From Gammaproteobacteria bacterium (lineage in GTDB: Bacteria; Pseudomonadota; Gammaproteobacteria; G965277405), in NCBI GenBank assembly GCA_965277405.1, contig OZ255726.1, forward strand, positions 1,847,128 to 1,911,127: DNA of 64,000 bases. The letters run 5' to 3'. Below, in pieces: positions 3,822 through 52,145 of the stretch. The notes beneath the pieces are model-generated. The model did not search any database and had not been told where the DNA came from. It worked only from the letters and a program-made list of their open reading frames with translations. The translations under genes and the position numbers were made by a program. Position 1 is the first letter of the stretch; each line of letters opens with the position of its first letter.

Positions 3822-3896
3822 CATATGAGGCGTTATTTTTTTTAGCCCTGCCCTCTGGTAGCTGGCAGTAACTAATTTGTTGATACTATTACGGCA

Positions 3897-4587: not shown

Positions 4588-5019
4588 CAGCAATGCTGCC
4601 ATTGAACGTCAAGGCTTTAAACTTAGCAATGCCAATATGTATCGGCGGATGCATGGGGTGTTGCAGTGGTCTTCTAGTAGGCTTTATATGCAGGTATACA
4701 GAATAGTCAAGAAAAAAGTAGATAGGTAGAGAGATAAAGAATGTAAGAAAGTAGAGACGTAAATAAGTCTACTAGTAGATAGGTAAAAAAGCAGTCTAGT
4801 AATACGGGTATAAAACTTGACTTTGTTTTATTTTGAATAGGATAGGGGTATCGACAAAAAATTATTATGTATATTTTTTACATAATTTCATTTAGCGCCA
4901 AACATGGGAATAGATGAAGTTTTTTGTAGATACTAAATGACATCTGTTTCCTTTTTTGTGTATGGAAATAGGTGGTTTGTCGCTAAACAGGAAGCCCATA
5001 TAAGGGGTTTTCTTTTAAT

Positions 5020-6476: not shown

Positions 6477-6761
6477 ATGAGGTTACAAATGCCACTGGCA
6501 AAACTAAATGAGAAAAGGCAAATAACCGTCCCTATTGAGATATGTAATCAAATACACGCAGACAAAGGCGATATTTTTAATTTTGAGGTTGAAGGCGATA
6601 AGATCATTATGACGCTGCAAAAATTAGTCCCAGCTACAAAAGAAAATTCTCGCACTAAAGGCGTTGATATATATAAATATATAGGTTCAATGAAAGGTAC
6701 GTTTGGGTCTGTTGAAGAGATAGACGAATATATTCGTAACGAACGCGCTTCATGGGATTAA
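6477..6761 (+). CDS. AbrB/SpoVT-type antitoxin (VapB-like), pair 1
   Basis: 94 aa with the swapped-hairpin motif …RQITVPIEICNQIHADKGDIFNFEVEGDKIIM…. It overlaps the downstream PIN gene by 10 bp. The start may be Met5 (6489). Confidence 0.7.
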   Translation: MRLQMPLAKLNEKRQITVPIEICNQIHADKGDIFNFEVEGDKIIMTLQKLVPATKENSRTKGVDIYKYIGSMKGTFGSVEEIDEYIRNERASWD

Positions 6762-7201
6762 TTGAAATATTAAAAGAAAATGATGTTTATTTTGACGCTA
6801 TTATATTCATCTATTTATTAGATGGCAATGAAGCATACTCTACAGCCCTTGATGATATAAGGAAGCATATAGCTACTGATCAAGTTAGGGTTTTTAGTTG
6901 TAATTTAATCTATACGGAAATACTGCCTTATCATGCAAAGCAAAATAACCAAGGTGCTATTGAACATATAATTCGCTTTCTGGATAATTTTGATATTGTT
7001 AGAATATCTAAAGACATAACAATTCACGCAGGAATTTTACGTGGAGAAACTGGAATGAAAACCCCTGATGCTCTCCATGTTGCTACAGCTATAAATCAAA
7101 GTATAAATCAAAGATGCAGTCTGTTTTTAACAAATAATGCTGGTATTCGTGTACCTAAAAATATGCAACGCATTCTATTATCTGATTTTTGCGCTGAATA
7201 A
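6752..7201 (+). CDS. PIN-domain toxin (VapC-like), pair 1
   Basis: 149 aa with PIN acidic residues and the …MKTPDALHVATAI… motif. Its start overlaps the antitoxin. Confidence 0.7.
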   Translation: MGLIEILKENDVYFDAIIFIYLLDGNEAYSTALDDIRKHIATDQVRVFSCNLIYTEILPYHAKQNNQGAIEHIIRFLDNFDIVRISKDITIHAGILRGETGMKTPDALHVATAINQSINQRCSLFLTNNAGIRVPKNMQRILLSDFCAE

Positions 7202-7709: not shown

Positions 7710-7925
7710 TTAGCAACGCTACGCTTAATTTATTGGCTAGATAGGGGTTCGAAAATAGCCAAGCTGTAGGCAATGAATGGAAAATTGCAAGTTATACAGA
7801 AGAAAAGTGACGACGACACGGAGATAAACAATGGAAAATATTGACGCATTGATGTTATCGTGAGCACAATTTGGTGGAAATATTACCTTAATCAAAGGTT
7901 CATTAAGCATTCATTAGCTATTGAC
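7710..7925. repeat. Right copy of the ~205-215 bp inverted repeat bracketing the TA island
   Basis: Reverse complement of 3897..4102. The frame of the small ORF seen in the left copy is broken here by a TAG. Confidence 0.8.
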
Positions 7926-7979
7926 AAACACGCGGCGGCACAAATTGATTGTATACCACTTGTTTTCGACAGATTTTTT

Positions 7980-8429
7980 ATGAGTAAGTATAAAAAAACA
8001 GCTGCGACCATCAAACAATTAACCCAGCAGCAATATGCAGTAACCCAGCAAAATGCGACCGAGCAGGCGTTTACAGGGGATTATCTTGATAATAAAAAAG
8101 CAGGAATATACGTTGATATTGTCAGCGGCGAACCATTATTTGCATCAATTCACAAGTACGATTCAGGGTCTGGTTGGCCAAGTTTTACTAGGGCAATTGC
8201 CGCAGCAAATGTTGTCGAAACAACAGATGCCAGTCTGGGGAAAGTTCGCACAGAAGTTCGTTCAAAACATGGAGACAGCCACTTAGGTCATGTCTTCGCT
8301 GATGGCCCAGCGCGTGATACTGGTTTGCGGTATTGCATTAACTCTGCATCGTTACGCTTTATTGAAAAAGATCAGCTGGTAGCAGCAGGGTATGCAGATT
8401 TTCTGGTTCTTTTCCCAGATAACCAGTAA
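7980..8429 (+). CDS. msrB: Peptide-methionine (R)-S-oxide reductase MsrB
   Basis: …[13 protein letters not shown]…[21 protein letters not shown]… is the classic SelR/MsrB motif. The probable start is the ATG at 7980 (MSKYKK…). The longer ORF from 7860 runs into the inverted repeat and is probably a read-through artefact. Confidence 0.85.
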
Positions 8430-8932
8430 TGGCTAGGCAACAGGCAATACTTGCAGGCGGCTGTTTTTGGGGAATGCAGGAATTATTCCGTATACACGAC
8501 GGTGTTGAGATCAGCCGTGTTGGCTATACTGGTGGTGATTGGGTCTCACCAACCTATGCAGATGTCAAGCAAGGTCGTACTGGGCATGCCGAAGCCCTCC
8601 AATTGTATTTTGACGATTCTATAATTCAGTACCGCAGTATTTTAGAGCTGTTTTTCCAAATTCACGACCCTACAACTATTGACAGCCAAGGCAACGACCG
8701 TGGCAGCCAATATCGTTCGGCAATTTTTTATACCAATGATGCCCAGCATGCGACAGCAATACAAACTATTGCTGATATAGAAACATCAAAATTATGGCCG
8801 GGTAAAATTGCTACTCAAGTGCTTGCTGCTGGCGAGTTTTGGCCTGCTGAGCAAGAGCATCAGCATTACTTGCAACAATACCCGAACGGATATACCTGTC
8901 ATTTTCTAAGGAAGGATTGGACGCTTTCATAG
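8429..8932 (+). CDS. msrA: Peptide-methionine (S)-S-oxide reductase MsrA
   Basis: The N-terminal [15 protein letters not shown] active-site motif. The start overlaps the msrB stop (ATGA-type coupling). Confidence 0.9.
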
Positions 8933-13968: not shown

Positions 13969-15510
13969 TTACATAGTCGGCAATACGAACGGGTTGCCGT
14001 CAATCACGCCTGTCGGCCAGCGGGCAGTGATTTTTTTGGTGTGGGTATAAAAACGAATACCATCTGGTCCATGAATGTCTGCGCTGGAAAAAATAGAACG
14101 CTTCCAGCCACCGAAGCTGTGGAATGCCATTGGGACAGGAATTGGTACATTTATTCCTACCATGCCGATGTTGCAGAATTCAGCGAACGTACGCGCGGTG
14201 TTGCCATCGCGGGTGAAAATAGCGGTACCGTTGCCAAACTCATGGTTGTTGACCAATTCTAGTGCTGCGTTGAGCGAGCCGATGCGCACAATGCACAAGG
14301 TCGGTCCGAAAATTTCTTCTTTGTAGATGCGCATGTCGGCGGTGACGTTATCAAACAATGTTCCGCCAATAAAAAAGCCATTATTGTGGATGCCGTCGTT
14401 TATTTTGAGCTTGCGTCCATCGACGACAACTGTTGCGCCTTCTTGTTTGCCAATCTCAACGTAGTTGGCGATTTTTTCGCGGTGTTCTTTGGTGATCACA
14501 GGGCCGTAATCTGGGTTGGTGTCTGCGGTGTATCCAGGACCTACCGATAAGTTTGTTACCGTTTTTTCCATGCGTTTGACCAGCTCATCTGCTATGTCGT
14601 GGTGGGCGAGCACGACAGAAATTGCCATGCAACGTTCACCAGCAGAGCCGTATGCTGCGCCAACCAACGCGCTTTCAACCATGTCAAGGTCAGCATCTGC
14701 CATCACCACCATATGATTTTTTGCGCCGCCGAGGGCTTGCACACGTTTGCCTGTTTTGCTCCCTGTTTCATACACATATTGAGCAATTGGCGTCGAGCCA
14801 ACAAAACTGACTGCTTGGACTGTTGGGCTTGCTAAAATAGCATCAACAGCTTCTTTGTCGCCATTCACAACATTGAACACGCCATCTGGCAATCCTGCTT
14901 CACTCAGCAACTCTGCTAAAAATAACGGGGTAGAAGGGTCGCGCTCAGATGGTTTTAAAATAAATGAATTTCCAGCAGCAATCGCCACAGGAAACATCCA
15001 CATTGGCACCATCGCGGGAAAGTTGAACGGGGTGATTCCAGCAACAACACCAAGCGATTGCACCATGTCGTAGCAATCAATATTGCTGCCAACATTCAGC
15101 GAGTACCCACCTTTGAGCAAATGCGGAATCCCACATACAAACTCAACAACTTCTTTGCCACGGGTAAGTTCACCTTGTGCATCGCTCCATACTTTGCCGT
15201 GTTCGCGGCTAATCATCGCCACAATTTCATCGTTGTGTTGTTCGAGCAATTGGTTGAACTTAAAAAACACCCGTGCACGTTTTACCGTAGAGGTCGTCGA
15301 CCACGGCTGCCACGCTGCACGTGCAGATTGTATGGCATGCTGAACTTCAGCAGCGCTGCTCAACCCCACTTGACCAACTTGTTCGCCAAGCGCGGGGTTG
15401 AAAATAGGGGCAGTACGCGCACTGGTCGCAGCAACTTTGCGACCATTAACATAATTATAAACTGTATACATACAATACTCACTGGTAAAATTCATTTTGG
15501 CTGCGCACAC
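13969..15510 (-). CDS. mmsA: CoA-acylating methylmalonate-semialdehyde dehydrogenase
   Basis: ALDH superfamily with the MmsA-type catalytic region (…GSAGERCMAISVV…) and an NAD-binding GxGxxG-like segment. The true start may be an internal Met (15471, MYTVYNYVNG…). Confidence 0.75.
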   Translation of the reverse strand: MCAAKMNFTSEYCMYTVYNYVNGRKVAATSARTAPIFNPALGEQVGQVGLSSAAEVQHAIQSARAAWQPWSTTSTVKRARVFFKFNQLLEQHNDEIVAMISREHGKVWSDAQGELTRGKEVVEFVCGIPHLLKGGYSLNVGSNIDCYDMVQSLGVVAGITPFNFPAMVPMWMFPVAIAAGNSFILKPSERDPSTPLFLAELLSEAGLPDGVFNVVNGDKEAVDAILASPTVQAVSFVGSTPIAQYVYETGSKTGKRVQALGGAKNHMVVMADADLDMVESALVGAAYGSAGERCMAISVVLAHHDIADELVKRMEKTVTNLSVGPGYTADTNPDYGPVITKEHREKIANYVEIGKQEGATVVVDGRKLKINDGIHNNGFFIGGTLFDNVTADMRIYKEEIFGPTLCIVRIGSLNAALELVNNHEFGNGTAIFTRDGNTARTFAEFCNIGMVGINVPIPVPMAFHSFGGWKRSIFSSADIHGPDGIRFYTHTKKITARWPTGVIDGNPFVLPTM

Positions 15511-15661: not shown

Positions 15662-16168
15662 ATGCGCGGAGGAAAAAGACCAGGAGCAGGGCGCAAGCTA
15701 AAATTTGCGGTGCCGACACAAGTCATGCGTGTTCCTGTAGATAAAATCAGTGATTTACACCGCTTTATTGAACAAGGCAGTAGCTGTGCTTTGCCATTGT
15801 TTACCGCAAAAGTTTCTGCAGGGTTTCCTTCGCCTGCTGATGATTATATTGATAGCAAACTCGATTTGAATGAGTATTTAATCCATAACCCAAGCGCTAC
15901 TTTTTTTGCCCGCGCAAGTGGCGATTCTATGATCGGCGCTGGGATTCATGACGGAGATTTACTCATTGTCGATAAGAGTATTCAGCCAATCCATGGGAAG
16001 ATTGTAATCGCCGTGGTATATGGCGAACTCACAGTGAAAAGGCTGCATATAGATGCTAAAAAAACATTACTGCTGGCTGAAAACCCTGAATATCCGTCAA
16101 TTGAGCTTACAGAAGAGCAAGAAGTGCGGATATGGGGGGTGGTGACGAATGTTATTCACCCGTTGTGA
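15662..16168 (+). CDS. umuD: DNA polymerase V autoproteolytic subunit UmuD (S24 peptidase)
   Basis: …VSAGFPSPADDYIDSKLDLNEYL…ASGDSMIGAGIHDGDLLIVDKS… carries the Ser/Lys dyad and cleavage-site context. The N-terminus is unusually long, and an alternative start at 15728 is possible. Confidence 0.8.
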   Translation: MRGGKRPGAGRKLKFAVPTQVMRVPVDKISDLHRFIEQGSSCALPLFTAKVSAGFPSPADDYIDSKLDLNEYLIHNPSATFFARASGDSMIGAGIHDGDLLIVDKSIQPIHGKIVIAVVYGELTVKRLHIDAKKTLLLAENPEYPSIELTEEQEVRIWGVVTNVIHPL

Positions 16169-16172
16169 GCGC

Positions 16173-17430
16173 GGTGTATTTCGCACTGGTTGATTGTAAT
16201 AATTTTTACTGCTCGTGCGAGCGGGTATTTAACCCGAAATTGCAAAATACCCCAGTAGTGGTGCTTTCGAATAACGACGGCTGCATCGTAGCGCGTTCGC
16301 AAGAGGTGAAAGCGGCGAATGTAGCGATGGGCGCGCCATACTTTCAATTCAAACGGCAACTGGCGGCAATGGGGGCAACAGTTTTTTCGTCGAACTACCA
16401 ATTATACGGTGATATGTCACAACGGGTGATGAATACCTTGAGGTGTTTTTTTGAGCATGTTGATGTGTATTCAATCGACGAGGCGTTTGTGCGCTTGGAG
16501 GGCATGAATTGCGACCTTGAACAATATTGCAGCGACGTTAGCAATGCAGTCCACCAATGGACAGGAATCCCTGTTTCCATTGGCATATCAACCACTAAGA
16601 CATTGGCGAAAATAGCGAATAATGTCGCCAAAAAACATACAACAAGCGGGGTGTTTGATATGAGAACAGAGTCGGACATCAAGCGCACGTTACGCGACTA
16701 TAGCGTAGCAGACGTTTGGGGTGTCGGCAAAGCGTGGAACAAACAACTGCAGCAACATAATATTCATACCGCTTTGCAGTTGCGTGCAACACCTATGACA
16801 ACTATGCGCGGCTGGTTTGGCGTGCTCGGGCAGCGCATGTCGTATGAGCTCCAAGGTGTTGCGTGTGTTGAAGACCAAGCACCTGCACCGAAGAAAAGTA
16901 TTATTACCTCGCGTTCGTTTGGCATAGATTTGACGGATAAAACCCTCGTCCACCAAGCATTGGCAAGCTACACCGCCCGCGCATTTGCAAAACTGCGCCA
17001 GCAAGCCAGCGTCGCGCAATTTGTGAATATTTTTTTGGAATACCGCAATCCACGTAATAGGCAAAGGCGGCTTTGCGATAGTAGCAGCTGCGAATTTGCC
17101 ATGGCTACTGCTGACTCCCGCCAAGCACTAGCAATGGTGCGCGATTGTATAGATGCCATATATACAACAGGAAAAGTATACAAAAAAGGCGGGGTAATTT
17201 TGAGTGGAATATCTCCTGCTGCACAAGTGCAACGCGACTTGTTTTCGCCAAGCGACTCGAGTAAATCTAAAGCTGTAATGGCAGCGCTCGATACAATTAA
17301 CCGCAAGATGGGTGCTACGACAATACAACTAGCGGTGCAAGGGCATAGTCGACCATGGGCAATGCAGTGTAACCACCGCTCGCCACGGTATACAACCCAA
17401 TGGAGCGAACTTATGACGGTGAAGAGTTGA
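16173..17430 (+). CDS. umuC: DNA polymerase V catalytic subunit UmuC (Y-family polymerase)
   Basis: …YFALVDCNNFYCSCERVFNPKL…VVVLSNNDGC… is the Y-family palm signature. The likely start is the GTG at 16173, just after the umuD stop. The ORF-track ATG at 16132 would overlap umuD. Confidence 0.8.
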
Positions 17431-17526: not shown

Positions 17527-18141
17527 TTACGGGCGTATCAAGCCAATGCGTATCGCTATTCTGGTGAGTTCGACTGCATTGCGGATTTTGAGTTTGAGGA
17601 ATAAGTTACTGCGGTGCTTTTCTACTGTTTTTACACTGATAAATAATGCGGCGGCGATTTCTGCCATTGAGTTACCTTTGGCTGTGTGGAGCATTATTTG
17701 TTCTTCGCGTGGTGAGAGCATCGGCATGTCGTTTTCTGCTGGGTCGAGCTTGTCTCTCATATAACTGCCGCCTTTGGCAACGATGGCAATGGCATCGAGC
17801 AATTCCTCAAATACATCGTCTTTCAGCATATAACTTTTTACACAAGGGAATACGTGGCTTTTTCCTTGTAGATATGGCTCAGAGTTCATCGTCAGCAAAA
17901 TAACCCTGAGCGATGCTTTCGTTGCTTCATCGAGTTGCTCTAACAGCTCAAACCCAGTACCTGTGCGCAGAATCACATCGAGCAATACGATTTGTGGTCG
18001 TGTTGCCTGAATAACTGATTTGGCTTCGGCAATGTCTGCGGCTTCACCAACCACAGTGAGTGATGCTGATGTCTCGAGGAGGTTGCGAATACCTTGACGA
18101 AACAGGGTATGGTCATCAACAATTACCAGTGAGCATGTCAT
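17527..18141 (-). CDS. NarL/FixJ-family response regulator (REC + LuxR-type HTH)
   Basis: A receiver domain (…VIVDDHTLFRQGIRNLLE…D54-like…) and a C-terminal LuxR HTH (…EQIMLHTAKGNSMAEIAAALFISVKTVEKHRSN…). Its start overlaps the HK stop by 4 bp. Confidence 0.85.
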   Translation of the reverse strand: MTCSLVIVDDHTLFRQGIRNLLETSASLTVVGEAADIAEAKSVIQATRPQIVLLDVILRTGTGFELLEQLDEATKASLRVILLTMNSEPYLQGKSHVFPCVKSYMLKDDVFEELLDAIAIVAKGGSYMRDKLDPAENDMPMLSPREEQIMLHTAKGNSMAEIAAALFISVKTVEKHRSNLFLKLKIRNAVELTRIAIRIGLIRP

Positions 18142-19922
18142 GGGCTGGGTGAGAGCGAAATACTGGTTCCTGTGCCAAGCTGGCTTTCAATCTGCAAGGT
18201 GCTGTTAAGCGTTAATGCTCGTTCGCGCATCGATATCAACCCCATGCCCTTGAGATTTGACTGCTGTACAAACCCTTTGCCATTGTCGACAATTTGCATA
18301 GAAAAGGTGTCGCCGCGCCGTTGAATATTGATGGTGATGTGGGTTGATTGTGCATGCTTAATCGCGTTATTGAGCGCTTCTGTACAAATAAGAAAAAGGT
18401 TTTCGGCTTGGTTGATAGATAGTTTATCGATCGTAGGGTCGATGGTAGTGCTGATTTGCACGTCTGTTTGCTTGGATATCTGTATGGCTTTAGCGCTGAT
18501 TGATGCAGCGACACCTTTGCTGAGTTCGATGGGTTTAATGCCATGAATCACTTGGCGGATGTTGCGGATACAGCCATCAACATCGTTGACAAGTTGTTGT
18601 TGTATTGCTACGCGAGTTTGCTTGTGTAACAGCATTTGTATTTGCAGTTTGAGTGCCACGAGCCGTTGCCCAATCCGGTCGTGCAGGTCGCGGGCGATGC
18701 GAGACCGCTCCATATCTTGAATGAGCTGCACTTGTTGATTCAGCGCAGCTACTGTATGCAGCAGCGTTATATATTTTTTGCAAGCCAATACCAACAAGAA
18801 TGCGGTTGAGATCATCTGTGATGCTACTAATGCGCCGATGTCTTCGTTGACGCGAATTGCCTCTCCTTCAAGATAACTGCCAATTGCCGGTGAGACAATC
18901 GCGATTGCACCGCAATACACTGAAGCATTGAGTTTAATTGCATTCTTATGGATTACCCATATGCTGCGAATGGCAATCCAACCCATCATCGCCATTGGGG
19001 TGGCCCAGTTTAGGATGATTAACGTATGATTAAAACCAGACCAAAGTGGTGAGAGCATCCATGCCGCAAATCCAAGCAAAATGGCAATAAATATTTTGTC
19101 TAGTATCGTGTAGGTAAATGCAAAAAAACGGATGATGAACTTTAACAACACCACCGTGCTTATTGAGCATAACACATAATAGATGCGCTGGACGTATTCG
19201 GTTTTCCAACCTAATTGATAAAACCAATTGGAACCAATTAACGATAGGATAAAGAGGATGAATATATACCAAAATAAATTTGTAAAGCGCATCTGTCCGC
19301 GTTGGCTGAGGATGATAAACAGCACAAATATGCAGGTGAATAAGAAAAAGCTGATTGAAATACCTTCGTAAATACGAATGCGTAATAGCTTGTTCATTTG
19401 TTTATTGACAAGTTCGCTGTAGCTGCCAAATGCTGGCATGGCATACACGAGTCCACCAACAGGAAAACTACTCTGCACCCGGAGAGCTAAGGTATTATTG
19501 CCTTGGTGAAATAGTTGAGCTGGGACTTGGTATAAGCGAATTGCCTTATTCGCATTAATATACTCAGGAAAAAACTGACCGTACTGGCCAATAACAGTGC
19601 CGTTGATGAATAATTTATCGACGCTATGGACGCTACCGAGGTAGATGTATACGTCTTGTTGTGGCGGTTTTGCAACGTGTAAATCCGCACGGTACCAACC
19701 CTCGCCAAACGGCTCACCCAGTCCTTGTTGTACCCAGTCTCCTGGCACTTGGATGGGCGACCATTGGCTGTCGTTGAGTTTCGTTGCCGACCATGCAAAA
19801 TCGTTACCAGCTTTAAAACGCCAATTGCTAATAGTTTGCGAGAATGCATGGGTGCTTATCAGCAGCAATACCGCAGCTATAAAAAAACGTGCAAGACACA
19901 ATTGCATCAATAACAGCAACAA
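18138..19922 (-). CDS. Sensor histidine kinase with 7TMR-DISM periplasmic and 7TM domains, HisKA_3 + HATPase
   Basis: Signal and periplasmic 7TMR-DISMED2-like segment (…WRFKAGNDFAWSATKLNDSQWSPIQVPGDWVQQG…), seven predicted TM helices, an H-box (…ARDLHDRIGQRL…) and N/G boxes. Confidence 0.8.
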   Translation of the reverse strand: MLLLLMQLCLARFFIAAVLLLISTHAFSQTISNWRFKAGNDFAWSATKLNDSQWSPIQVPGDWVQQGLGEPFGEGWYRADLHVAKPPQQDVYIYLGSVHSVDKLFINGTVIGQYGQFFPEYINANKAIRLYQVPAQLFHQGNNTLALRVQSSFPVGGLVYAMPAFGSYSELVNKQMNKLLRIRIYEGISISFFLFTCIFVLFIILSQRGQMRFTNLFWYIFILFILSLIGSNWFYQLGWKTEYVQRIYYVLCSISTVVLLKFIIRFFAFTYTILDKIFIAILLGFAAWMLSPLWSGFNHTLIILNWATPMAMMGWIAIRSIWVIHKNAIKLNASVYCGAIAIVSPAIGSYLEGEAIRVNEDIGALVASQMISTAFLLVLACKKYITLLHTVAALNQQVQLIQDMERSRIARDLHDRIGQRLVALKLQIQMLLHKQTRVAIQQQLVNDVDGCIRNIRQVIHGIKPIELSKGVAASISAKAIQISKQTDVQISTTIDPTIDKLSINQAENLFLICTEALNNAIKHAQSTHITINIQRRGDTFSMQIVDNGKGFVQQSNLKGMGLISMRERALTLNSTLQIESQLGTGTSISLSPSP

Positions 19923-20351
19923 CTAATTGCGGTTGAAAAACACTCTGTCGAGTGACAATACGCCAGCACCACGACCGATGATATATACCAAGCATGTTGC
20001 CCAAATAAGATGCGTTGCCCAAGCACTTGGGTATACGAAAATCTGGATAACCATGGTCATAATCAGCAGTGACGCTGCGCTAAAGCGTGCAGCTAGGCCG
20101 ATTACTAACAGAATTGAAAATAAATGTTCAGCATATGTTGCGAGGTATGCGGCGAGCTTAAATGGAATAATCGGCAGGTCATATTCATATTCAAACAACA
20201 ATAAAGTCGAGGGTATGATTTCGATAATGCCGTCAACTTTGGTGCGAGCTGATAACCAAAAAGGAGTGGCGACGGCAAGCCGTGCCATTAGTGCTATGAT
20301 ACTGTGGGGGATGGTGTCAGCGATACGTGCCAGTGTATATAATAGTTTCAT
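19923..20351 (-). CDS. DoxX-family membrane protein (bufferin-operon DoxX component)
   Basis: 142 aa with four TM helices in the DoxX pattern. Its stop directly abuts the HK start codon, and it is the last gene of the DUF2282-MNIO-DUF2063 cluster. Confidence 0.65.
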   Translation of the reverse strand: MKLLYTLARIADTIPHSIIALMARLAVATPFWLSARTKVDGIIEIIPSTLLLFEYEYDLPIIPFKLAAYLATYAEHLFSILLVIGLAARFSAASLLIMTMVIQIFVYPSAWATHLIWATCLVYIIGRGAGVLSLDRVFFNRN

Positions 20352-21148
20352 AATGGCAATTTTCCGCCTGGGGTGAAAGAAATCGAGCTGATTGTTCCGT
20401 CAAAAAGCACAGATTGAAGCAATATTGTTAAGTCAAAACTTGGGTGTTGCTGCAGCGTATATTCTAACGCTGCTTGCATAGTATGCTGGTTGCAATAGCA
20501 TAAAAATGTATGGTCTGCGGCTTGCAATGTGCGTACTTCTACCGCTGCATGGCAACGCAGCGCCAGTATGTGTTTTGTTGAGCCGTCAAATACAATACCT
20601 GCTACAGCAGGTGGTGATTGTTGGTGGGCCTGCCAAATTGCATCAATTGGGTGTGGTGATGTTAGTAACTGCACGCTTGCATGGAGGTTGAGTTGTGCAC
20701 GTAACAGCTGTTCACCCGCAACTTTGGCAAGGTCGCTTGGTTTGAGCACGGGGTCATCTGTGGCGTGATACGCCAAATGCAAGGCGTATTCAAGTTTGGC
20801 AACGTCTGGCAAATAACCAACAGCTTGTAACGCTGGGTGTTGTTGGATACTGCGCTCAAGAAAAGCAACAAAATCACCACCGTAGCGGATCAACGTGCCG
20901 TGGCTAGGCAGGTTATCTGGAATAAATGCCTGAGCCAGCTGGGTAAAAGTAGTTTTGCCAATCAGTTGTTGGACAACAGGGTAGAGTGATGCTAATGCTT
21001 GAATAAGCGAGTGAACCACGTTGTTACGGTACACGTTCAAACGCTGCTGTTGGAGGGTGGTATTGGCTATATCTTGCAACGCAGTATTGTCGGCAGCGTC
21101 GAGCACAGATGCAGCGAAGGTGCGCTGCCATTGTAGCAGATTATTCAT
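20348..21148 (-). CDS. bufC: DUF2063-family protein (MNIO partner; BufC-like)
   Basis: The start MNNLLQWQRTF… overlaps the DUF692 stop as TAATG. Its position and size are those of the partner subunit of the DUF692 enzyme. The longer ORF to 21298 is an overlap artefact. Confidence 0.6.
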   Translation of the reverse strand: MNNLLQWQRTFAASVLDAADNTALQDIANTTLQQQRLNVYRNNVVHSLIQALASLYPVVQQLIGKTTFTQLAQAFIPDNLPSHGTLIRYGGDFVAFLERSIQQHPALQAVGYLPDVAKLEYALHLAYHATDDPVLKPSDLAKVAGEQLLRAQLNLHASVQLLTSPHPIDAIWQAHQQSPPAVAGIVFDGSTKHILALRCHAAVEVRTLQAADHTFLCYCNQHTMQAALEYTLQQHPSFDLTILLQSVLFDGTISSISFTPGGKLPL

Positions 21149-22005
21149 TATGCTGCTGCGGATTTGATCGCTTGTAAAATCGAGTTGGCGGTTGCTGCTT
21201 CGTCCAATAGGGTTTGCAGTGGCGGAATATTGGTATCCCATTCGATGAGGGTATGTACCGCGCCACAATGCCGAATCGCCTGACGGTATAATCCCCATAC
21301 ATTATCGCAGACGCGGCATGAATGATCGTCAATCAGCAAGCGTTGCTCGTCAATTTTCTCTTCGGCATGTCCTGCCAGATGGATTTCCTTGACCGCAGTA
21401 GCAGGGATTTCGCGAATGTATGCTTGCGCGTCTAAACCATTATTGATCGTGCTGACATAGATATTATTGACGTCTAATAAAATACCAGCGCCAGTACGTT
21501 TGTGGATGTTTGTTAAAAATTCAGTTTCGCTCATCGATGATGTTTGACTTGAGAAATAGGTCGATGGGTTTTCGAGGAGCAATGTTGTGTTGAGTTGTTG
21601 CTGGACATAGTCGATATTGTCACAGACCAATTGCAGCGACTCATTGGTATACGGGATGGGTAATAAGTCGTTGAAGAATTTTGCTTCGCTATAGCTCCAT
21701 GATAAATGGTCGGAAAACATGAACGGTTGATACCGCTCTTTTAAAGCGCATAATCGCTGCAAATGTGCATGTTGTTGCCAATTTGCGCTGCCGAGTGAAA
21801 GACCAATTGAATGAAATGAAAGTGGGTAATGTTGACGAATGGCATCAAGCTGTGCTAGGGGTGTGCCGCCACCACCCATATAATTTTCAGGATGCAATTC
21901 AAGCCAGCCAATGGCTGGCTTGAACCTGAGTAAATCATCAAAATGTTTGGGCTTAAAACAAATGCCGACAATATTGGTAGTATTATTGGTATTATTTGAG
22001 TGCAT
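21148..22005 (-). CDS. bufB: DUF692 / MNIO (multinuclear non-heme iron oxidative enzyme; MbnB/BufB-like)
   Basis: 285 aa with a TIM-barrel xylose-isomerase-like pattern (…ICFKPKHFDDLL…WLELHPENYMGGGG…HLAGH…), typical of DUF692 enzymes that modify Cys-containing precursor peptides. Confidence 0.75.
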   Translation of the reverse strand: MHSNNTNNTTNIVGICFKPKHFDDLLRFKPAIGWLELHPENYMGGGGTPLAQLDAIRQHYPLSFHSIGLSLGSANWQQHAHLQRLCALKERYQPFMFSDHLSWSYSEAKFFNDLLPIPYTNESLQLVCDNIDYVQQQLNTTLLLENPSTYFSSQTSSMSETEFLTNIHKRTGAGILLDVNNIYVSTINNGLDAQAYIREIPATAVKEIHLAGHAEEKIDEQRLLIDDHSCRVCDNVWGLYRQAIRHCGAVHTLIEWDTNIPPLQTLLDEAATANSILQAIKSAAA

Positions 22006-22025
22006 TTTAGAGTCTTATAACCTTA

Positions 22026-22286
22026 TTATTTGATTGGTGCTAAACTACCTCCCGACATTTTTGCACACGAGCCGTCGAGCACCAACATCCAAGCATTGCC
22101 CTGGTTATCGACCTTACTGGTTCCTGCGCATGTTGTACCTGGACCTGCTGCGCAATCGTTTTTTCCTGCTTTGGCAACGCCATAACATTTCTCTGTGCCA
22201 TCAGCTTGCGCCGGGACAGCAACCATCGCCAATGCGGCAGTAACTGCACTCGCAACTAACAAACTTGAAGCAACTTTTTTCTGCAT
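22026..22286 (-). CDS. bufA: DUF2282 bufferin-type RiPP precursor (secreted Cys-containing peptide; BufA-like)
   Basis: 86 aa with a Sec signal peptide (…AMVAVPAQA|DG) and a core [26 protein letters not shown]…[20 protein letters not shown] holding four conserved Cys. This matches the DUF2282 consensus. Confidence 0.75.
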
Positions 22287-22392
22287 AATAAATTCTCGTG
22301 ATTGAATAGAAGCGCATTATAGCCAAGGGCAACACCAACGGATATTAGGGAAAACCTGTATTGTTGTATGCGGCAGATTTGGGTGCTATACA

Positions 22393-22701
22393 TTAGGGAA
22401 GCTCTGATTAAGTCGCTGATGGAGCGAGTTTGATGGTAATTGCTGATGACTGCAAGGTGCAAACCGCACGCATGCCGCTGGCTCATGGCGGAGCATATCC
22501 GCCAAGGGGTGCAACACTGCAAGCGTAAGCAATTGGCGTAAACCAAGAGTATATTGCACACGGGAACGGGGGAAACGCAGCGCGTTGTTGTTGCAGCAGC
22601 ACGTGATAATACCACCAGTATTAGCTGCGCACTGCGCTTAAGTTATCATCAGCGTTGTTGTGCCGTCTCGCCCATCATGGACTTAATCAGAGGTTCGCGA
22701 A
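22393..22701. mobile_element. MITE-like non-coding element, copy b (~310 bp)
   Basis: Ends TTAGGGAAGCTCTGATTAAGTCGCTGATGGAGCGAGTTTGATGGTAATTGCTGATGA… and …CCGTCTCGCCCATCATGGACTTAATCAGAGGTTCGCGAA, which are inverted repeats. It lies ~100 bp upstream of bufA. Confidence 0.75.
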
Positions 22702-24252: not shown

Positions 24253-26046
24253 CTAATGCCCGCGCATAAACACCGCATCGAGTTCTTGCATGGTCAGTTG
24301 CACCCACGTTGGGCGGCCGTGGTTGCATTGACCGCTGCGTTGTGTCGCTTCGATTTGGCGGAGTAATGCGTTCATTTCTGGTATTTTTAACATTCTATTG
24401 GCACGAACTGCAGTGTGGCAGGCAACACTACTTAGCACTCGATCGCTGGCAGCAACAACGCGGTGTGATTTGCCATACTGTTGCAAGTCAGCGACTATAT
24501 CTTCGAGCAATGCCGCGCCGTCGTAGTTTTGCAACTGTGCAGGAATCGAGCGCAGCCAGACAAATGTAGCGCCGCAGCGGGTGATGTCTAAGCCACATGC
24601 AAACAGTATTTGTTGATATTCCTCAAGCGTTTCGATGCTATGTGCAGGCATGTCGATACGAATCGGGGTGAGGAGTTGTTGTACCGCAATGGTGTGGGAA
24701 TGCTGTAGTTTGAGCTGTTCATACAAAATGCGCTCGTGGGCTGCGTGCATATCGACAATCACCATGCCGTTATTATTTTCTGCCAAAATATATACACCAT
24801 GAATCTGCCCAACTGCAAACCCAAGGGGCGGTATATCGTCAGTCGACTTTGGCAGGTCGATGGTAGTTTGTGGCTCGGTTGTGGCGTATGCAGCATTGGG
24901 TTGCTGCGTACCCATGACTGCAGCAGGTCGCCAACTAGCAGCCGCGCGCTCACCTACACCAGGGTATTGCAAGCCGATAGTACTTTGAATTGCCTGTGGA
25001 GTGGGTGGTTTAAGCAACTGTGCTCCAGATTGAGCGGTGGATGGACTGGGCTGCGCTAAGATTGATTGTAGCGTTGATTTAATAAAGTCATACAACAGTC
25101 GACTCTGCTCAAAACGCACTTCATGCTTGCTTGGATGGACATTGACATCAACAGATTCTGCCGGGAAACTAAGAAACAGCACGTATGCTGGATAGCGCCC
25201 GTTGTGCAATACGTCGCGGTATGCGCTACGAATCGCATGGCTTATCATCGGGTCGCGAATCCATCGACCATTCAAAAAAATATATTGTACGTCTGCTTGG
25301 CTGCGCGAAAATGCTGGCATTGCCACCCACCCTGAAAGAGCTAATTCACCGCGGCTGCTATCTATTTCTAATGCGTGATCGACAAAACTCTGCCCGCATA
25401 AAGAGACAAGACGTTGTTCCTCGCCAACCTTATCCAACGCTTTGCCGAGCGAGAGAATCTGTTTGTGGTTATGGGTCAAGCTAAAGGCAATACGCGGATG
25501 CGATAATGCTAGGCGGATTATCATTGCTTCACATTGTTTAAACTCGGAGCGTTCTTGGCGAAGAAACTTGCGGCGCGCAGGCACATTATAAAACAGGTTC
25601 GCCACAGTAACCCTTGTCCCTTCATTCGCTGCAGTCGGTGCGACTTCGCCATGACTATTGATTTGCCAGCCGTCTTGGCTGCCTTGAGGCCGAGAGATGA
25701 TTGTGGTGCGCGCAACAGATGCAATACTCGCGAGTGCTTCACCGCGAAAACCAAGGCTGGTGATATTACGTAAATCATCAATAGCCGTTATTTTGCTCGT
25801 GGCATGACGCAAGATTGATAATGGCAGTTGCTGGCGGTCAATGCCAATGCCATCATCGTGCACTTGAATACAATCACAACCTCCACCATTTAAGATAATA
25901 TCGATTGACTGCGCCGCCGCATCGATGCTGTTTTCCACGAGTTCTTTGATAATCGACGCAGGCCTATCTATTACCTCTCCAGCGGCAATTTGATTGATGA
26001 CTTGTTGGGGTAGTTGTTGAATGTTTGCCATTATTGTCGCAGCCAA
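24253..26046 (-). CDS. mutL: DNA mismatch repair protein MutL
   Basis: N-terminal GHKL ATPase motifs (…IAAGEVIDRPASIIKELVENSIDA…) and a C-terminal dimerisation domain. Its start overlaps the upstream sulfatase gene's 3' end by 16 bp. Confidence 0.9.
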   Translation of the reverse strand: MAATIMANIQQLPQQVINQIAAGEVIDRPASIIKELVENSIDAAAQSIDIILNGGGCDCIQVHDDGIGIDRQQLPLSILRHATSKITAIDDLRNITSLGFRGEALASIASVARTTIISRPQGSQDGWQINSHGEVAPTAANEGTRVTVANLFYNVPARRKFLRQERSEFKQCEAMIIRLALSHPRIAFSLTHNHKQILSLGKALDKVGEEQRLVSLCGQSFVDHALEIDSSRGELALSGWVAMPAFSRSQADVQYIFLNGRWIRDPMISHAIRSAYRDVLHNGRYPAYVLFLSFPAESVDVNVHPSKHEVRFEQSRLLYDFIKSTLQSILAQPSPSTAQSGAQLLKPPTPQAIQSTIGLQYPGVGERAAASWRPAAVMGTQQPNAAYATTEPQTTIDLPKSTDDIPPLGFAVGQIHGVYILAENNNGMVIVDMHAAHERILYEQLKLQHSHTIAVQQLLTPIRIDMPAHSIETLEEYQQILFACGLDITRCGATFVWLRSIPAQLQNYDGAALLEDIVADLQQYGKSHRVVAASDRVLSSVACHTAVRANRMLKIPEMNALLRQIEATQRSGQCNHGRPTWVQLTMQELDAVFMRGH

Positions 26047-27875
26047 GTATTCGTTAAAATCATTGTGGAAATTAATTGCTCATACAATTTGAGTGTTTGC
26101 TGTAGCTGTATAGTTTGTTTTCCAAACTGTGCTGTAGCTGTAGTGACTCCTGATTGGGTAATTGCCCCCAGCCGCTGGGCATAATATATCAACGCTCGAT
26201 TATTTTTACTCGGCTGTAACAACGAGCCAGCGAACGCATTGATTGACAGGCGATAGTGGAGTAAATCAGCAACAGTCGGGTATATTTCAACTTGTCCGCG
26301 CACGCTGTTGTCGATTCTTGCGCCAATCAACTGCGGCGCGTATACGATGAATGGAATGGCAAACAAATTGACGATGCGTTGTTGCTGAGTTGCTGCAGAT
26401 GGAGCGAATTTGGTGTGGTCTGCTATGAGAATAAACACTGTATTATCGAACCATGGCTGCAGGCGTGCTTTTGAAAAAAACTGCCCTAGGCTCCAATCAG
26501 CATAATGCAAGGTATTGGCAAACCGCGCTGGTGTGCTATTGCCTGGGATAAGCTGATGCTCAACAGGCATTAGCGCAAACGGTTCGTGGGTAGTACCAGT
26601 AAATGCAACTGCTAGAAATGGTGTATCATGCGGAATTTCTTTCAGCAGGGTGTTGAACATTTCATAGTCCCAGCCTGTGATGTTGTCGTCAGCATACGGC
26701 AATTCCATTGGAATATCCTGGCGATGATAGGCGTAATCAAAGCCATTATTGAGCACCACCTCATTGATGTTATAGGTATGTTTGCTCGCTGATTGCACAA
26801 ACAAGGTGGCATAGCCTTGGCGCTGTGCCAACTCGCCAATGCTGTCCATAGCAAAGCCACTCAAGCCCTTGCCTAGGGGTGGTGTTGCAGGACTGCGCGG
26901 AATACCAAATAACACCGCCTGTAAGGCCTCAATGCTGCGTTGCCCTGCGGCATAGCCGTTGCTAAACAACAATGACTGCGCGGCAATTTTGTCGAATTCT
27001 GGAGTAAGCGCCTGCTGCGCGCCATAACTGTCAAGCCACTGCTTCCCCCAGCTCTCCAATAAAATAACCACAACGTTGGCTGGCTTGGCAAGCGTTGGCT
27101 GTATAGTTGTTGCAAACGGAGCTTGCTCAGATATGCCACGTTGCTTTTCTAAGGCAATAATTTGTTGTTGGGTGAAATATTGCAGTGGTTGCATATCGTG
27201 AAAATCATCCAGCGCTGCGGAAATTGACAACACCCCGTTGACCAGCACATGACCACGTTGCAAGCCATAACTGCTGTAGACATGGTTGGTATGGAGTGTT
27301 TTCCCTGCTAAACGAAAACCACGAAAGCCGAACACCAACGCCATACATAGCACCGGCAATATTAGCAAATGCAACCAATACGGTGGCACAACATATGTTT
27401 TGGGTGCATATTTGAATATCAGCAACAACGCCAATACTGCCACCACAATAAATAATACGCTCAAGCCCAAGTAGTCGTGCAGCGCCAAATAGGCATATAA
27501 CGGCAAGTCATCACTGAAATAGACGATTTCATAGCTAATGTGTTTTTGACCTTGCGCAAAATATACAGCGTCTGCAAGCAACACGACAACAGCAAAGCAC
27601 AACAATAACCAACTACATAACGATATCAGTCGCCACCATGTTTTGCTGGCACGCAACTTAGGTATCGGCAGCCACACCAGCAACAGCGGTAGCGCAAGTA
27701 AGCGACAAGCTGTCGCAATATCAACCCAATACCCAGCGAACAAGTCACTGTAGCCAATGTCAGCCAACAGCGCGTGATTCTGCCATAGTAATACCACACG
27801 GCCCAAAAAAATTACGCAGGCAAACACAGCAATAGCTGCAAGCTGTAGCGATAGCCAGCGCAATGTTGACTTCAT
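26031..27875 (-). CDS. LTA-synthase/sulfatase-family membrane protein, paralog 1
   Basis: 614 aa with an N-terminal polytopic membrane region and a C-terminal alkaline-phosphatase-superfamily domain (…VVILLESWG…, …ADHTKF…). Confidence 0.7.
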   Translation of the reverse strand: MKSTLRWLSLQLAAIAVFACVIFLGRVVLLWQNHALLADIGYSDLFAGYWVDIATACRLLALPLLLVWLPIPKLRASKTWWRLISLCSWLLLCFAVVVLLADAVYFAQGQKHISYEIVYFSDDLPLYAYLALHDYLGLSVLFIVVAVLALLLIFKYAPKTYVVPPYWLHLLILPVLCMALVFGFRGFRLAGKTLHTNHVYSSYGLQRGHVLVNGVLSISAALDDFHDMQPLQYFTQQQIIALEKQRGISEQAPFATTIQPTLAKPANVVVILLESWGKQWLDSYGAQQALTPEFDKIAAQSLLFSNGYAAGQRSIEALQAVLFGIPRSPATPPLGKGLSGFAMDSIGELAQRQGYATLFVQSASKHTYNINEVVLNNGFDYAYHRQDIPMELPYADDNITGWDYEMFNTLLKEIPHDTPFLAVAFTGTTHEPFALMPVEHQLIPGNSTPARFANTLHYADWSLGQFFSKARLQPWFDNTVFILIADHTKFAPSAATQQQRIVNLFAIPFIVYAPQLIGARIDNSVRGQVEIYPTVADLLHYRLSINAFAGSLLQPSKNNRALIYYAQRLGAITQSGVTTATAQFGKQTIQLQQTLKLYEQLISTMILTNTWLRQ

Positions 27876-33221: not shown

Positions 33222-33416
33222 ATGAAACCAAGCTCGCGCATCCTACCAATCATCGTCTGCCCACTGTGTAAAGCACCGCTACACCGCGTTGGTGCAGAAC
33301 TCTGGTGCCGTGCTGAAAAAATCGCCTATCCAATCCAAGGCAAATCGCTGCAGCTATTCGTCGCAGCTGCACGACCATTATCGCTGGAAGAGCTGGAAAA
33401 GCAGCTGTTACCATAG
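33222..33416 (+). CDS. Trm112/YcaR-family small zinc-ribbon protein
   Basis: 64 aa with …IVCPLCKAPL…LWC…IAYPIQ… in the YcaR pattern, at the usual position after lpxK. Confidence 0.65.
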   Translation: MKPSSRILPIIVCPLCKAPLHRVGAELWCRAEKIAYPIQGKSLQLFVAAARPLSLEELEKQLLP

Positions 33417-33771
33417 TTGTCGCCGCTATACATAACTTAACATAACTTATTACTCCATCGGCTGGGGTGGAGTCTTGGCGGTTACGCTGCAGCCGAACGG
33501 TCGCAGCTTAACGCCAAACCCCCGCGCTAATCCGTCAATCCCGCTCCTTACCAAGAACCAAGAACCAATAAGCAATAACCGATAACAGTAGCTATTCGAC
33601 CGCAGCGACCAAGCCCCTTGTTTGCTCAGGCTGCTGTGAATTGGGGCAGCATTAGCAAAACTCTGATGCAGCCGCTAATGCAGCGAGTAGATTAAACTAG
33701 GTTTTTTACCTTGTATTTCTTGCCCAAAGTATGCCAACATTAGCCTATAGAAATATTTACTGCCGCAGCCT

Positions 33772-34689
33772 ATGAAATATTTACTGCCAATACTCATGAG
33801 TGCCGCCCTCTTGGCGTTCTCAACCGTGGGTTGTGCTGCCGATTTGCAGCAAGGTCTAACTACCTATAACAATAGCGACTACCCAACTGCTATTCGCGAA
33901 TTACAACCGCTTGCTGAACAGGGCAATGCCGAAGCCCAGTTCAAGCTGGGTGTAATGTATTATAACGGAAAAGGCGTGCCGCAAGACTCTAAGGTGGCGC
34001 TGCAGTGGTATGAACGTGCCGCAGCACAGCGATATGCCAAAGCCCAGTTACAGATGGGTTTAATGTATTTTTACGGAAAAGGTGTAGCGCAAGACGCTAA
34101 GGCGGGGCTGCAGTGGTATAAACTTGCCGCAGCACAGGGAGATGCCGACGCCCAGAGCATTCTGGGTTGGATGTATGGTAAAGGAGAAGGTGTAGCGCAA
34201 GACTATCAGGCGGCGCTGCAGTGGTGTAAACTTGCCGCAGCACAGGGAGATGCTGACGCCCAGAACAATATGGGTTGGATGTATCATAATGGATACGGTG
34301 TATTGCAAGACTATCAGGCGGCGCTGCAGTGGTATAAACTTGCCGCAGCACAGGGAAATGCCAACGCCCAAGTCAATTTGGGAATGATGTATGGTAGCGG
34401 AAAAGGTGTGCCGCAAGACTATAAGGCGGGGCTGCAGTGGTATAAACTTGCCGCAGCACAGGGAGATGCTGACGCCCAAAACAATCTGGGAGTGATGTAT
34501 GCTAACGGAACAGGTGTAATCCAAGATAATGTGTATGCCCATATGTGGTATAATATTGCGGCGTATAATGAAAGTACGACAGGAGCAAAATCGCGAGATA
34601 GTCTTGCTAAAGTAATGACCGCTGCCCAGATCGCTAGCGCACAGCAACTTGCCCGTGAATGTGTCAAGAAAAAGTATAAGGGGTGTTGA
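33772..34689 (+). CDS. Secreted Sel1-repeat (SLR/TPR-like) protein, short paralog
   Basis: 305 aa with a signal peptide (MKYLLPILMSAALLAFSTVGCAADLQQ) and about seven 36-aa Sel1 repeats (…AQ.NLG.MY..G.GV.QDY..A..WYKLAAAQG.A…). Confidence 0.8.
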   Translation: MKYLLPILMSAALLAFSTVGCAADLQQGLTTYNNSDYPTAIRELQPLAEQGNAEAQFKLGVMYYNGKGVPQDSKVALQWYERAAAQRYAKAQLQMGLMYFYGKGVAQDAKAGLQWYKLAAAQGDADAQSILGWMYGKGEGVAQDYQAALQWCKLAAAQGDADAQNNMGWMYHNGYGVLQDYQAALQWYKLAAAQGNANAQVNLGMMYGSGKGVPQDYKAGLQWYKLAAAQGDADAQNNLGVMYANGTGVIQDNVYAHMWYNIAAYNESTTGAKSRDSLAKVMTAAQIASAQQLARECVKKKYKGC

Positions 34690-34867
34690 ATAGCAGCGTT
34701 GTCAACTTGATGCTAGCTGTGCTGCCACCTTGCCAACAGTGCTAGCCTAGGCTAATCAGGTTGTGACGTAGACGATGAGAAAATATATGTCACAGCAGCA
34801 GAAAACTAGGCTGCTGCGTTGCATCCCTCGGCGTATATGCTACGGCATGCGCTCAAGGTAATGTGCG

Positions 34868-34943
34868 CGGAATGCGCTTTGCAATCATCAGCAATTGCCA
34901 TCAAACCAGCCCCATCAGCGGCTTAATCAGACCTTCCCAAGGG
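34868..34943. repeat. Solo end fragment of the MITE-like element (copy e)
   Basis: …GCAATCATCAGCAATTGCCATCAAACCAGCCCCATCAGCGGCTTAATCAGACCTTCCCAAGG matches the B-type end of the full copies. It marks the duplication-unit junction. Confidence 0.6.

Positions 34944-51390: not shown

Positions 51391-52145
<755 letters not shown>

Follow-up and report, generated by a model that had tools for sequence, protein, structure and literature searches.

We describe here a bufferin gene cluster that appears to carry its own signalling system. It lies on the minus strand of a 64,000-nucleotide stretch of DNA (the window, whose first letter is position 1) from a Gammaproteobacteria bacterium (GenBank assembly GCA_965277405.1, contig OZ255726.1, positions 1,847,128 to 1,911,127) and comprises a promoter region followed by six head-to-tail open reading frames (ORFs), bufA-bufB-bufC-doxX-kinase-regulator, at 17527..22396. 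Our reading, to which we would give a probability of about 0.6, is that this is a 4.87-kb self-contained bufferin cassette with its own two-component system, autoregulated through a conserved box in front of bufA. Judged from the sequences of its genes, the locus is a genuine bufferin (Buf1) cluster, which is already known biology; its particular interest is as a rare, conserved and apparently portable regulatory variant, in which a seven-transmembrane (7TM) HisKA_3 kinase, a NarL-type regulator and a candidate operator are integral to the cluster. Bufferins are the largest family of MNIO-modified RiPPs (peptides made on ribosomes and modified after translation), and their documented regulators are only extracytoplasmic function (ECF) sigma/anti-sigma pairs. 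Two-component genes next to such clusters were set aside in the published survey, and the cassette is a clear case in which a two-component system is integral and co-inherited.

The mechanism that we propose is as follows. bufA would give rise to a Sec-exported 86-aa DUF2282 precursor. By analogy with Caulobacter Buf1, whose copper-binding, thiooxazole chemistry and function have been characterised (PMC11626156), BufB and BufC would act on it in the cytoplasm and turn its C45 and C53 into 5-thiooxazoles. After export and removal of the signal peptide, the 58-aa peptide, carrying a C34-C74 disulfide, would bind excess periplasmic copper, with DoxX serving as a putative accessory membrane protein. 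The kinase would sense a periplasmic or envelope cue that is tied to copper or oxidative stress, probably not bare copper held by His, Met or Cys, and would phosphorylate the regulator. The regulator would in turn bind the ~22-bp box, which lies roughly between −53 and −33 in a bufA promoter with a −10 but no −35 element, and activate the whole operon. Because the kinase and regulator genes are most likely on the bufA transcript, the pair would amplify its own expression (positive autoregulation). In a small gammaproteobacterial clade, the two-component system may thus fill the role played by SigF/NrsF in other Buf1 clusters.

First of all, the four upstream genes belong to the families in which the first-pass annotation, made from the sequence alone, had placed them (DUF2282, DUF692, DUF2063 and DoxX), and all four pass the Pfam thresholds. 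bufA (22026..22286) encodes an 86-aa DUF2282/Buf1 precursor that scores 85.5 bits against PF10048 (cut-off 22.4) and covers positions 2–53 of the 53 in the model, in effect the full model. [quoted passage not shown] The remaining core is 58 aa long, with a monoisotopic mass of 5703.66 Da and a predicted mature mass of ~5693.58 Da with the C34-C74 disulfide (−2.02 Da) and a loss of 4.03 Da at each of C45 and C53. Its four cysteines (C34, C45, C53 and C74 of the precursor) align with conserved cysteines of four relatives, including those from loci L003, L006 and L007 discussed below; the precursor pattern recognised at first sight is thus upheld in an alignment that covers these relatives, with Caulobacter BufA1 itself standing outside it. 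The four-Cys rule for the bufferin core comes from earlier work (PMC11626156; PMC12452194). Sequence searches of the PDB gave nothing useful for BufA and no match for BufC.

The enzyme gene, bufB (21148..22005), encodes an MNIO (DUF692) bufferin maturase that scores 331 bits against PF05114. It passes the NCBIfam equivalog NF050167, MNIO_BufB, at 360.2 bits against a cut-off of 310 and falls far under the cut-offs of each of the HvfB, ApyH, MbnB and ChrH equivalogs. In the PDB it matches 3BWW and MbnB chains, and its His/Asp/Glu/Asn columns are invariant across 25 homologues. The partner protein gene, bufC (20348..21148), scores 80.3 bits against the DUF2063 family PF09836 (cut-off 27.2), while doxX (bufD; 19923..20351), which encodes a DoxX-family membrane protein, reaches 49.3 bits against PF07681 (cut-off 23.6), its product being 60–62% identical to the copies at loci L003 and L004. 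DoxX is a frequent but non-essential member of Buf1 clusters and is dispensable in Caulobacter (PMC11626156). With four fitting families, a passed BufB equivalog, the Cys pattern and a Sec-type signal peptide, the identification of the locus as a bufferin-type operon stands.

Second, the two genes at the 3′ end of the block encode a sensor histidine kinase (18138..19907; 589 aa from the ATG at 19907, with an alternative TTG at 19922) and a NarL/LuxR-type response regulator (17527..18141). The kinase matches HisKA_3 (PF07730, 42.8 bits) and HATPase_c (PF02518, 42.7 bits), and is laid out as an N-terminal helix, a beta-sandwich, seven transmembrane (TM) helices, a HisKA_3 dimerization and histidine phosphotransfer domain with His409, and HATPase_c. 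An AlphaFold2 model based on 34 homologous sequences of ~600 aa, with a predicted local distance difference test (pLDDT) of 84, places the beta-sandwich at residues 29–161 and the seven helices from residue ~163 to 380. Three orthologues conserve the H, N and G boxes, and His409-Asp410 and the N and G boxes are also conserved in the 34 homologues. The earlier label of a 7TMR-DISM kinase survives in part: transitive homology and predicted architecture speak for it, while direct Pfam scans, relaxed to E ≤ 10, match the kinase to neither PF07695 nor PF07696. When the sensor and TM region served as the query of an exhaustive phmmer search, 2,335 relatives were returned, and relatives of ~600 aa align across this region with E values of 1e-37 to 1e-26. 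Eight of the latter were scanned; every one contains HisKA_3 and HATPase_c (8/8), seven match PF07695 (7/8) and five do so above the 29-bit cut-off (5/8). By predicted architecture and remote homologues, and not by a direct family test, the kinase is thus of the 7TMR-DISM type. A scan of the genome collection with the kinase found only two unrelated C-terminal matches (L001 and L002). The regulator combines a receiver domain (PF00072, 59.3 bits) with a GerE helix-turn-helix (HTH; PF00196, 62.5 bits), and the receiver residues D9/D10, D55, T84 and K107 are present in its sequence. It is 66% and 56% identical to the copies at L003 and L004, respectively, with a nearly invariant HTH, as would be expected if the orthologues share an operator. 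It reaches none of the NCBIfam equivalogs, the best being MctR at 124 bits against a cut-off of 300.

What the kinase may respond to is suggested by its periplasmic sensor domain (residues ~24–162; 19422..19838), a predicted galactose-binding-like jelly roll of the glycoside hydrolase family 2 (GH2) N-terminal type. The sole Pfam signal of this domain is BetaGal_gal-bd at 26.0–26.9 bits, just below the cut-off of 27.3. Modelled in isolation, it reaches a pLDDT of 93, and in Foldseek it aligns best with GH2 beta-glucuronidases and LacZ, at their N-terminal domains (TM-scores of 0.70–0.76, E ~1e-8). No His, Cys or Met is conserved in the domain among the three orthologues compared, which argues against copper ligation in the manner of CusS/CopS. 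Taken together, the fold and the missing metal ligands suggest that the domain binds something other than bare copper, perhaps a cue from the envelope or a glycan, perhaps the bufferin.

These features of the sensor also nourish the rival explanation that survives best, which we regard as a serious possibility even though we hold it to be unlikely. It states that the signal is a non-metal envelope signal (a glycan, a cell-wall fragment, a host molecule or hypochlorite/oxidative stress) and that the main role of the peptide is not copper buffering. In addition to the GH2-type sugar-binding fold and the absence of conserved metal-ligand residues, it draws on related operons of Haemophilus and Neisseria, which are linked to hypochlorite or oxidative stress in the titles cited in PMC13097082, and on DoxX homologues, which have been linked to oxidative or sulphur stress (PMC12452194). 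The characterised Buf1 peptides, on the other hand, bind copper and protect against it (PMC11626156), the gig operons of Legionella and Cupriavidus are induced by copper and gold (PMC5413113), and the signal and the function of the peptide need not coincide. A far more speculative proposal, which we consider a long shot, is a portable 'sense-and-buffer' module whose sensor domain follows the state of the bufferin, apo or copper-loaded, so that the peptide would induce its own production in tune with the occupancy of the periplasmic copper buffer. Should this be true, the circuit would do for a metallophore what autoinduction does for lantibiotics, though independently of quorum, and would provide the first identified signal receptor for the bufferin family.

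Third, the six ORFs are tightly packed. Reading of the ORFs confirms the arrangement first described, six co-directional genes on the minus strand with bufC overlapping bufB as TAATG and the kinase and regulator genes overlapping by 4 bp; the last of these overlaps is an ATGA, as is the one at the bufC/doxX junction, and the intergenic gaps across the block range from −4 to +20 nt. The start of the kinase gene, on the other hand, had been misread as an ATG at 19922: the codon at 19922–19920, directly after the doxX TAG, is TTG, and the ORF has no ATG before 19907, where the database protein P0001 (589 aa) begins. The interval that separates the kinase gene from doxX is thus 0 nt with TTG 19922 as the start and 15 nt with ATG 19907. 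We looked for a terminator in this interval and throughout the block and found none; a terminator-like hairpin at the 3′ end of doxX (19954–19941) was discarded, as it is absent from the minimum free energy structure (z = 0.41) and is not conserved in L003 and L004. A consensus scan of the block found nine promoter-like matches, with 11.8 expected from shuffles, and thus no enrichment. Given this layout, the six genes are most likely co-transcribed on a single mRNA, and translation of the kinase gene may, as first suggested, be coupled to that of the RiPP genes.

A second rival accepts that the kinase and regulator control bufA but has them expressed from their own weak constitutive promoter inside doxX, so that there would be no positive feedback. 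Many two-component systems have to be expressed at a basal level whatever their own output, and sigma-70-like sites are listed on the minus strand at 20359–20332 and 19340–19312. Such matches nevertheless fall below the shuffle expectation (9 vs 11.8), and the spacing speaks for a shared transcript, since the kinase gene starts only 4–15 nt after the doxX stop codon and overlaps the regulator gene in all three lineages in which the unit is found, with no terminator in between. We thus consider a separate promoter rather unlikely.

Fourth, the six genes are conserved as a unit. Among 5.8 billion proteins, the full-length kinase has two relatives, one being the kinase itself and the other P0002, which is 48% identical. 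P0002 is encoded at L003, on a 155-kb metagenome contig, in the order BufA1-MNIO-HvfC_N-DoxX-histidine kinase-response regulator and with entirely different flanks; its kinase, regulator and BufB are 48%, 66% and 62% identical, respectively, to those of the window. The closest relative of BufB, P0125 (63% identical), belongs to a third instance, L004, which has the same gene order and, again, different flanks. The next BufB loci, at 55% and 52% identity, contain neither a two-component system nor a recognisable DoxX. The two-component system thus accompanies all three closest BufB relatives (62–100% identical) and is missing from the next (≤55%).

A fourth copy, L092 (ENA ERZ26859072), shows how sharply the unit is delimited. 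It matches the window at 99.67% identity across a stretch of exactly 4,870 bp (positions 22396 to 17527 of the window; L092 5512–10381), and the two are unrelated beyond this block on both sides. The homology begins at the edge of a miniature inverted-repeat transposable element (MITE) in the window and stops at the TAA stop codon of the regulator gene. Of the 16 substitutions, 14 are synonymous, the exceptions being Q6K in BufC and I412V in the kinase, and the 110-nt promoter region contains none. The precise ends, the excess of synonymous changes and the unchanged promoter argue that the promoter and the six genes are a discrete unit kept by purifying selection. The nearly identical copies may go back either to horizontal transfer or to a rearrangement inside a single species. 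The six-gene unit proposed at first reading is thus supported by an order that is kept in two divergent loci with unrelated flanks, by the 4,870-bp block and by a promoter box specific to these loci. As a separate observation, half of the differences between the window and L092 (8/16) cluster within 70 nt (18609–18678), just after the phospho-accepting His of the kinase, and seven of these eight are synonymous; the cluster looks like a small recombination or gene-conversion patch and not like point mutation.

The origin of the unit can be approached through outgroup kinase-regulator cassettes, which stand alone with their own non-coding leader and are 28–30% identical over the sensor, TM and kinase regions. 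These 7TMR-DISM_7TM + HisKA_3/REC + GerE cassettes (L089, from GCA_024225895.1, and L090) share the domain order, the kinase length of ~600 aa and the overlap of the two genes with the cassette described here; they differ from it in that a non-coding region of their own precedes them, and the short upstream sequence that is visible shows no doxX or buf gene, the contigs ending 130–420 nt upstream. As the outgroup cassettes stand alone, the two-component system was probably recruited to the buf genes. In the simplest history, one small gammaproteobacterial clade would have acquired a ready-made 7TM-HisKA_3/NarL cassette downstream of doxX.

Fifth, the bufA promoter contains a candidate operator. 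Upstream of bufA, the window, L003 and L004 have one box in common and cannot otherwise be aligned. In the window, the conserved promoter-proximal element (ATACAAC-A-ATACAGGTTTTCCCTAATAT) occupies 22340..22369 on the minus strand, and the ~22-bp box within it reads AATACAGGTTTTCCCTAATAT (22362–22342). In the best 22-nt block, 17 of the 22 columns are invariant across the three loci; shuffled controls give 9.7 ± 0.67 invariant columns with a maximum of 12, and none of 300 reaches 17. The pattern ATACAGGnTTnCCC occurs once in the 64-kb window and once each in L003, L004 and L005, and it has zero occurrences in L006 and L007, two buf loci that lack a two-component system. A −10-like hexamer, TATAAT (22316..22321, minus strand), lies 41 nt downstream of the start of the box, and the spacing is identical at L003 (TAGAAT) and L004 (TACAAT). 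No credible −35 element is present at the three loci, where the corresponding position reads TATCCG, TAGCGA or TATCAC. On this evidence, we infer that the box is a candidate operator of the cassette's own regulator. Two further ideas about the box were dropped. Weaker copies in the window, for example, near the multicopper oxidase gene, are three-mismatch matches at chance level only. The box is also not a clean palindrome or a NarL 7-2-7 site, as its symmetry is weak and varies between loci, and we claim no binding-site class for it.

The third rival takes the box to be the operator of another regulator encoded elsewhere, for example, a metal or redox sensor of the LysR or MerR type, in which case the linked two-component system would control other genes or would merely modulate expression. 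The link between box and regulator is indeed purely correlative, LysR-type domains co-occur with ~11% of MNIO loci (PMC12452194 Table S1), and the ATA…TAT outline of the box, as read from its sequence, fits several regulator families. Several observations count the other way. The box is found only at buf loci with the two-component system and is absent from the nearest ones without it; the four contexts share no other regulator gene; and the box travels within the 4,870-bp block alongside the regulator gene. Moreover, its position, −53 to −33 at a promoter without a −35 element, suits an activator and not a MerR-type spacer site. This explanation is therefore doubtful in our view, and we retain the regulator of the cassette as the more plausible ligand of the box.

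Finally, the coupling is rare. We collected 80 buf loci from metagenomes with a BufB profile and classed their neighbours by Pfam scans, single-sequence phmmer being too insensitive for other classes of kinase and regulator. In 43 loci at least 1.2 kb follows the last buf gene, and 29 of these (29/43) have a co-directional ORF within 100 nt downstream, encoding thioredoxin-like proteins, protoglobin, DoxX, one ECF sigma factor and others. A kinase or receiver protein is the tight downstream neighbour in none of the 43 sampled loci, which agrees with the first-pass view that coupling to a regulator is unusual. Upstream, 10 of 41 loci have an ECF sigma gene, one (1/41) a gene with a receiver domain and none (0/41) a kinase gene; the ECF sigma proportion matches the published ~23% (PMC12452194 Table S1) and thus serves as a positive control for the survey. 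The published MNIO survey names sigma-70/NrsF as the Buf1-associated regulators and finds other conserved genes 'in extremely low proportions' (PMC12452194); HATPase_c occurs in 12% of its neighbourhoods (±5 genes), a figure that was dismissed as background (Table S1). That the kinase-regulator pair sits beside the buf genes by chance and is functionally unrelated to them, as might be supposed from the presence of Response_reg within ±5 genes of 18% of MNIO genes, likewise dismissed by the authors as background (PMC12452194 Table S1), is effectively refuted already by the comparative data: three divergent lineages whose flanks are unrelated share the six-gene order and tight spacing, both parts lie in one block with base-precise ends, none of the 43 sampled loci shows the coupling, and the two-component system tracks the three closest BufB relatives.

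In the same sample, genes with a guanylate/adenylate cyclase domain are the upstream neighbour in 4 of 41 buf loci, and one also adjoins the buf genes of L007 (7631–9360). The MNIO survey noted, in Legionella, a bufferin precursor to which a guanylate cyclase domain is coupled (PMC12452194), and such genes may represent a second, under-appreciated signalling link for buf clusters.

Several points weigh against the proposal of an autoregulated copper-buffering cassette. First, two of its proteins stay below the nearest equivalogs, BufC at 49 bits against the HvfC cut-off of 142, as expected for a different subfamily, and DoxX at 42 bits against the HvfX cut-off of 80. Second, with no conserved His, Cys or Met, the sensor sequence does not support a copper signal. 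Third, we infer co-transcription and autoregulation from the layout of the genes, and a consensus scan leaves room for an internal promoter in doxX or in the kinase gene. Fourth, the dyad symmetry of the box is weak and its co-occurrence with the regulator is the sole tie between the two, so that the box could serve a regulator encoded elsewhere. Fifth, the module seems to be dispensable or decaying in at least one lineage. In the L004 lineage (L004 7778–12395; L005 443–634), BufA has only 63 aa and is truncated after CysIII, identically in two independent samples, the regulator lacks 32 residues of its receiver domain, and the kinase gene is frameshifted in a T7 homopolymer, although the frameshift may be an assembly error. 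Finally, the known instances number only four, and all of them come from organisms that are uncultured or poorly sampled. The window itself derives from a 2.17-Mb contig of a poorly sampled gammaproteobacterium that branches deeply, the best match of its MnmG other than itself being 60% identical.

Comparison with known systems places the cassette among the Buf1 clusters with a distinct regulatory part. Caulobacter vibrioides buf1ABCD (CCNA_03363-03366; PMC11626156) has the four-gene core in common with it, in the same order. The Caulobacter cluster is regulated by the nearby ECF pair SigF/NrsF; the cassette has instead a 7TM HisKA_3 kinase and a NarL-type regulator at its 3′ end, and its promoter contains a clade-specific box; the chemistry of its peptide is proposed by analogy with Caulobacter. 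The neighbours scanned within ~10 kb include no sigma-70 or NrsF domain; the ORF at 13969–15510 lies outside this set, and mutL (24253–26046) was identified by its translation only. The GIG operon of Legionella pneumophila (lpg2105-2108), like other Legionella buf clusters (PMC5413113; PMC12452194 Fig. S4), is gammaproteobacterial and, as with the cassette, has no adjacent ECF sigma gene. The GIG operon is inducible by copper and gold, LetA has been excluded as its metal-responsive regulator and RpoS contributes (PMC5413113). It resides on the mobile element ICE-beta-ox, and the cassette likewise lies among mobile elements; no linked two-component system has been reported for Legionella buf/gig, whereas the cassette physically includes a dedicated one.

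The two-component part also has parallels outside the bufferins. The 7TMR-DISM proteins RetS and LadS of Pseudomonas aeruginosa combine a periplasmic jelly roll, seven TM helices and a kinase core. The predicted kinase of the cassette resembles them in all three, and differs in that its core is HisKA_3 and not HisKA, it has no receiver or Hpt domains, and its sensor is closest to GH2 N-terminal domains. In the nisin system, the mature peptide is the signal for NisK/NisR, the regulator is of the OmpR type and the peptide is an antibiotic. The cassette is alike in that a RiPP operon is physically linked to a kinase-regulator pair, for which activation of its own promoter is proposed here, and unlike in that its regulator is NarL-type and its product a predicted periplasmic metallophore. 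CusRS and CopRS belong to the HisKA/OmpR class, have two TM helices and a His/Met-rich periplasmic metal site, and control periplasmic copper defence. The cassette shares with them a predicted periplasm-sensing kinase-regulator pair at copper-related genes, but its kinase has seven predicted TM helices and a jelly-roll sensor in which no His, Met or Cys is conserved, and its output is of the NarL class. CopRS is also cited in the Caulobacter work (PMC11626156). As a compact 4.9-kb system with a candidate operator, the cassette could be moved to a tractable host in order to find the inducing signal and to study autoregulation. It also bears on the broader issue of what is detected by kinases of the widespread, uncharacterised GH2-like/7TM sensor architecture, and it indicates that buf clusters, with their regulation on board and mobile elements at their borders, can be moved or recombined as units.

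The genomic neighbourhood calls for one correction. The operon had been described as lying near msrBA and a CueO copper oxidase, in keeping with a metal or oxidative-stress theme; msrB/msrA (7860–8932) are in fact 8.6 kb away and the sole multicopper oxidase gene (56047–57564) is 34 kb away, and neither msrBA nor a multicopper oxidase gene was seen in the 6–10 kb flanks of the related loci. Because both are distant and not conserved there, we dropped this theme. Between the cassette and msrB/msrA lie anmK, an hscB-like gene, hscA, maf, an ORF read as an aldehyde dehydrogenase and umuDC. The last of these, a umuD-like (Peptidase_S24) and umuC-like (IMS) pair at 15662–17430 on the plus strand, converges on the 3′ end of the regulator gene, where the homology with L092 stops.

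The MITE copy that had been noticed just upstream of bufA is indeed there: a repeat of ~300 bp (22397..22700) with terminal inverted repeats, outside the unit itself, abuts the promoter end of the cassette and ends at 22397, ~110 nt from the bufA ATG. It belongs to a family of ~230–310 bp with terminal inverted repeats GGAAsCTCTGATTAAGTC that is scattered through the window, with further copies or fragments at 1894–1968, 3589–3820, 34861–34945, 44431–44490, 55932–56006 and 57601–57904; copies thus flank the multicopper oxidase gene on both sides. The MITE in the window (22396/22397) and the end of an rve-transposase gene in L092 (5511/5512) abut the same nucleotide, 110 nt upstream of bufA. 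This nucleotide may mark a CTAA site that is a hot spot for insertion, or it may be where a mobilised block truly ends. A MITE at the right-hand flank of L092 was also considered and is unsupported by blastn, a match resembling the terminal inverted repeat occurring only elsewhere in L092 (3046–3079). Outside the block, L092 1404–1889 matches window 4180–4650 at 83%.

Other features of the window are of a more general kind. A 209-nt inverted repeat, 96% complementary (3894–4102 and 7710–7918), brackets 3.6 kb with a PIN-domain gene (6752–7201) and could delimit an invertible or composite mobile segment. Two Sel1-repeat genes (33772–34689 and 35334–38219) contain ~29 tandem units of 108 nt (36 aa) with 60–88% identity, and their upstream regions are duplicated (33370–33711 and 34965–35299, 93–96% identical); the Sel1 repeats, along with ankyrin repeats at L003, hint at a host-associated lifestyle. 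A thiamine pyrophosphate riboswitch (41511–41599, minus strand; Rfam RF00059, 70.3 bits) lies upstream of an ATP-binding cassette transporter operon that encodes a solute-binding protein (40434–41480), a permease (38911–40464) and an ATPase (38295–38918). The window also encodes three paralogous sulfatase-family (PF00884) membrane proteins of ~610–680 aa (26031–27875, 52266–54305 and 61862–63745), and the middle gene is situated between AT-rich direct repeats (51908–52050 and 54388–54531) that are 84–89% identical.

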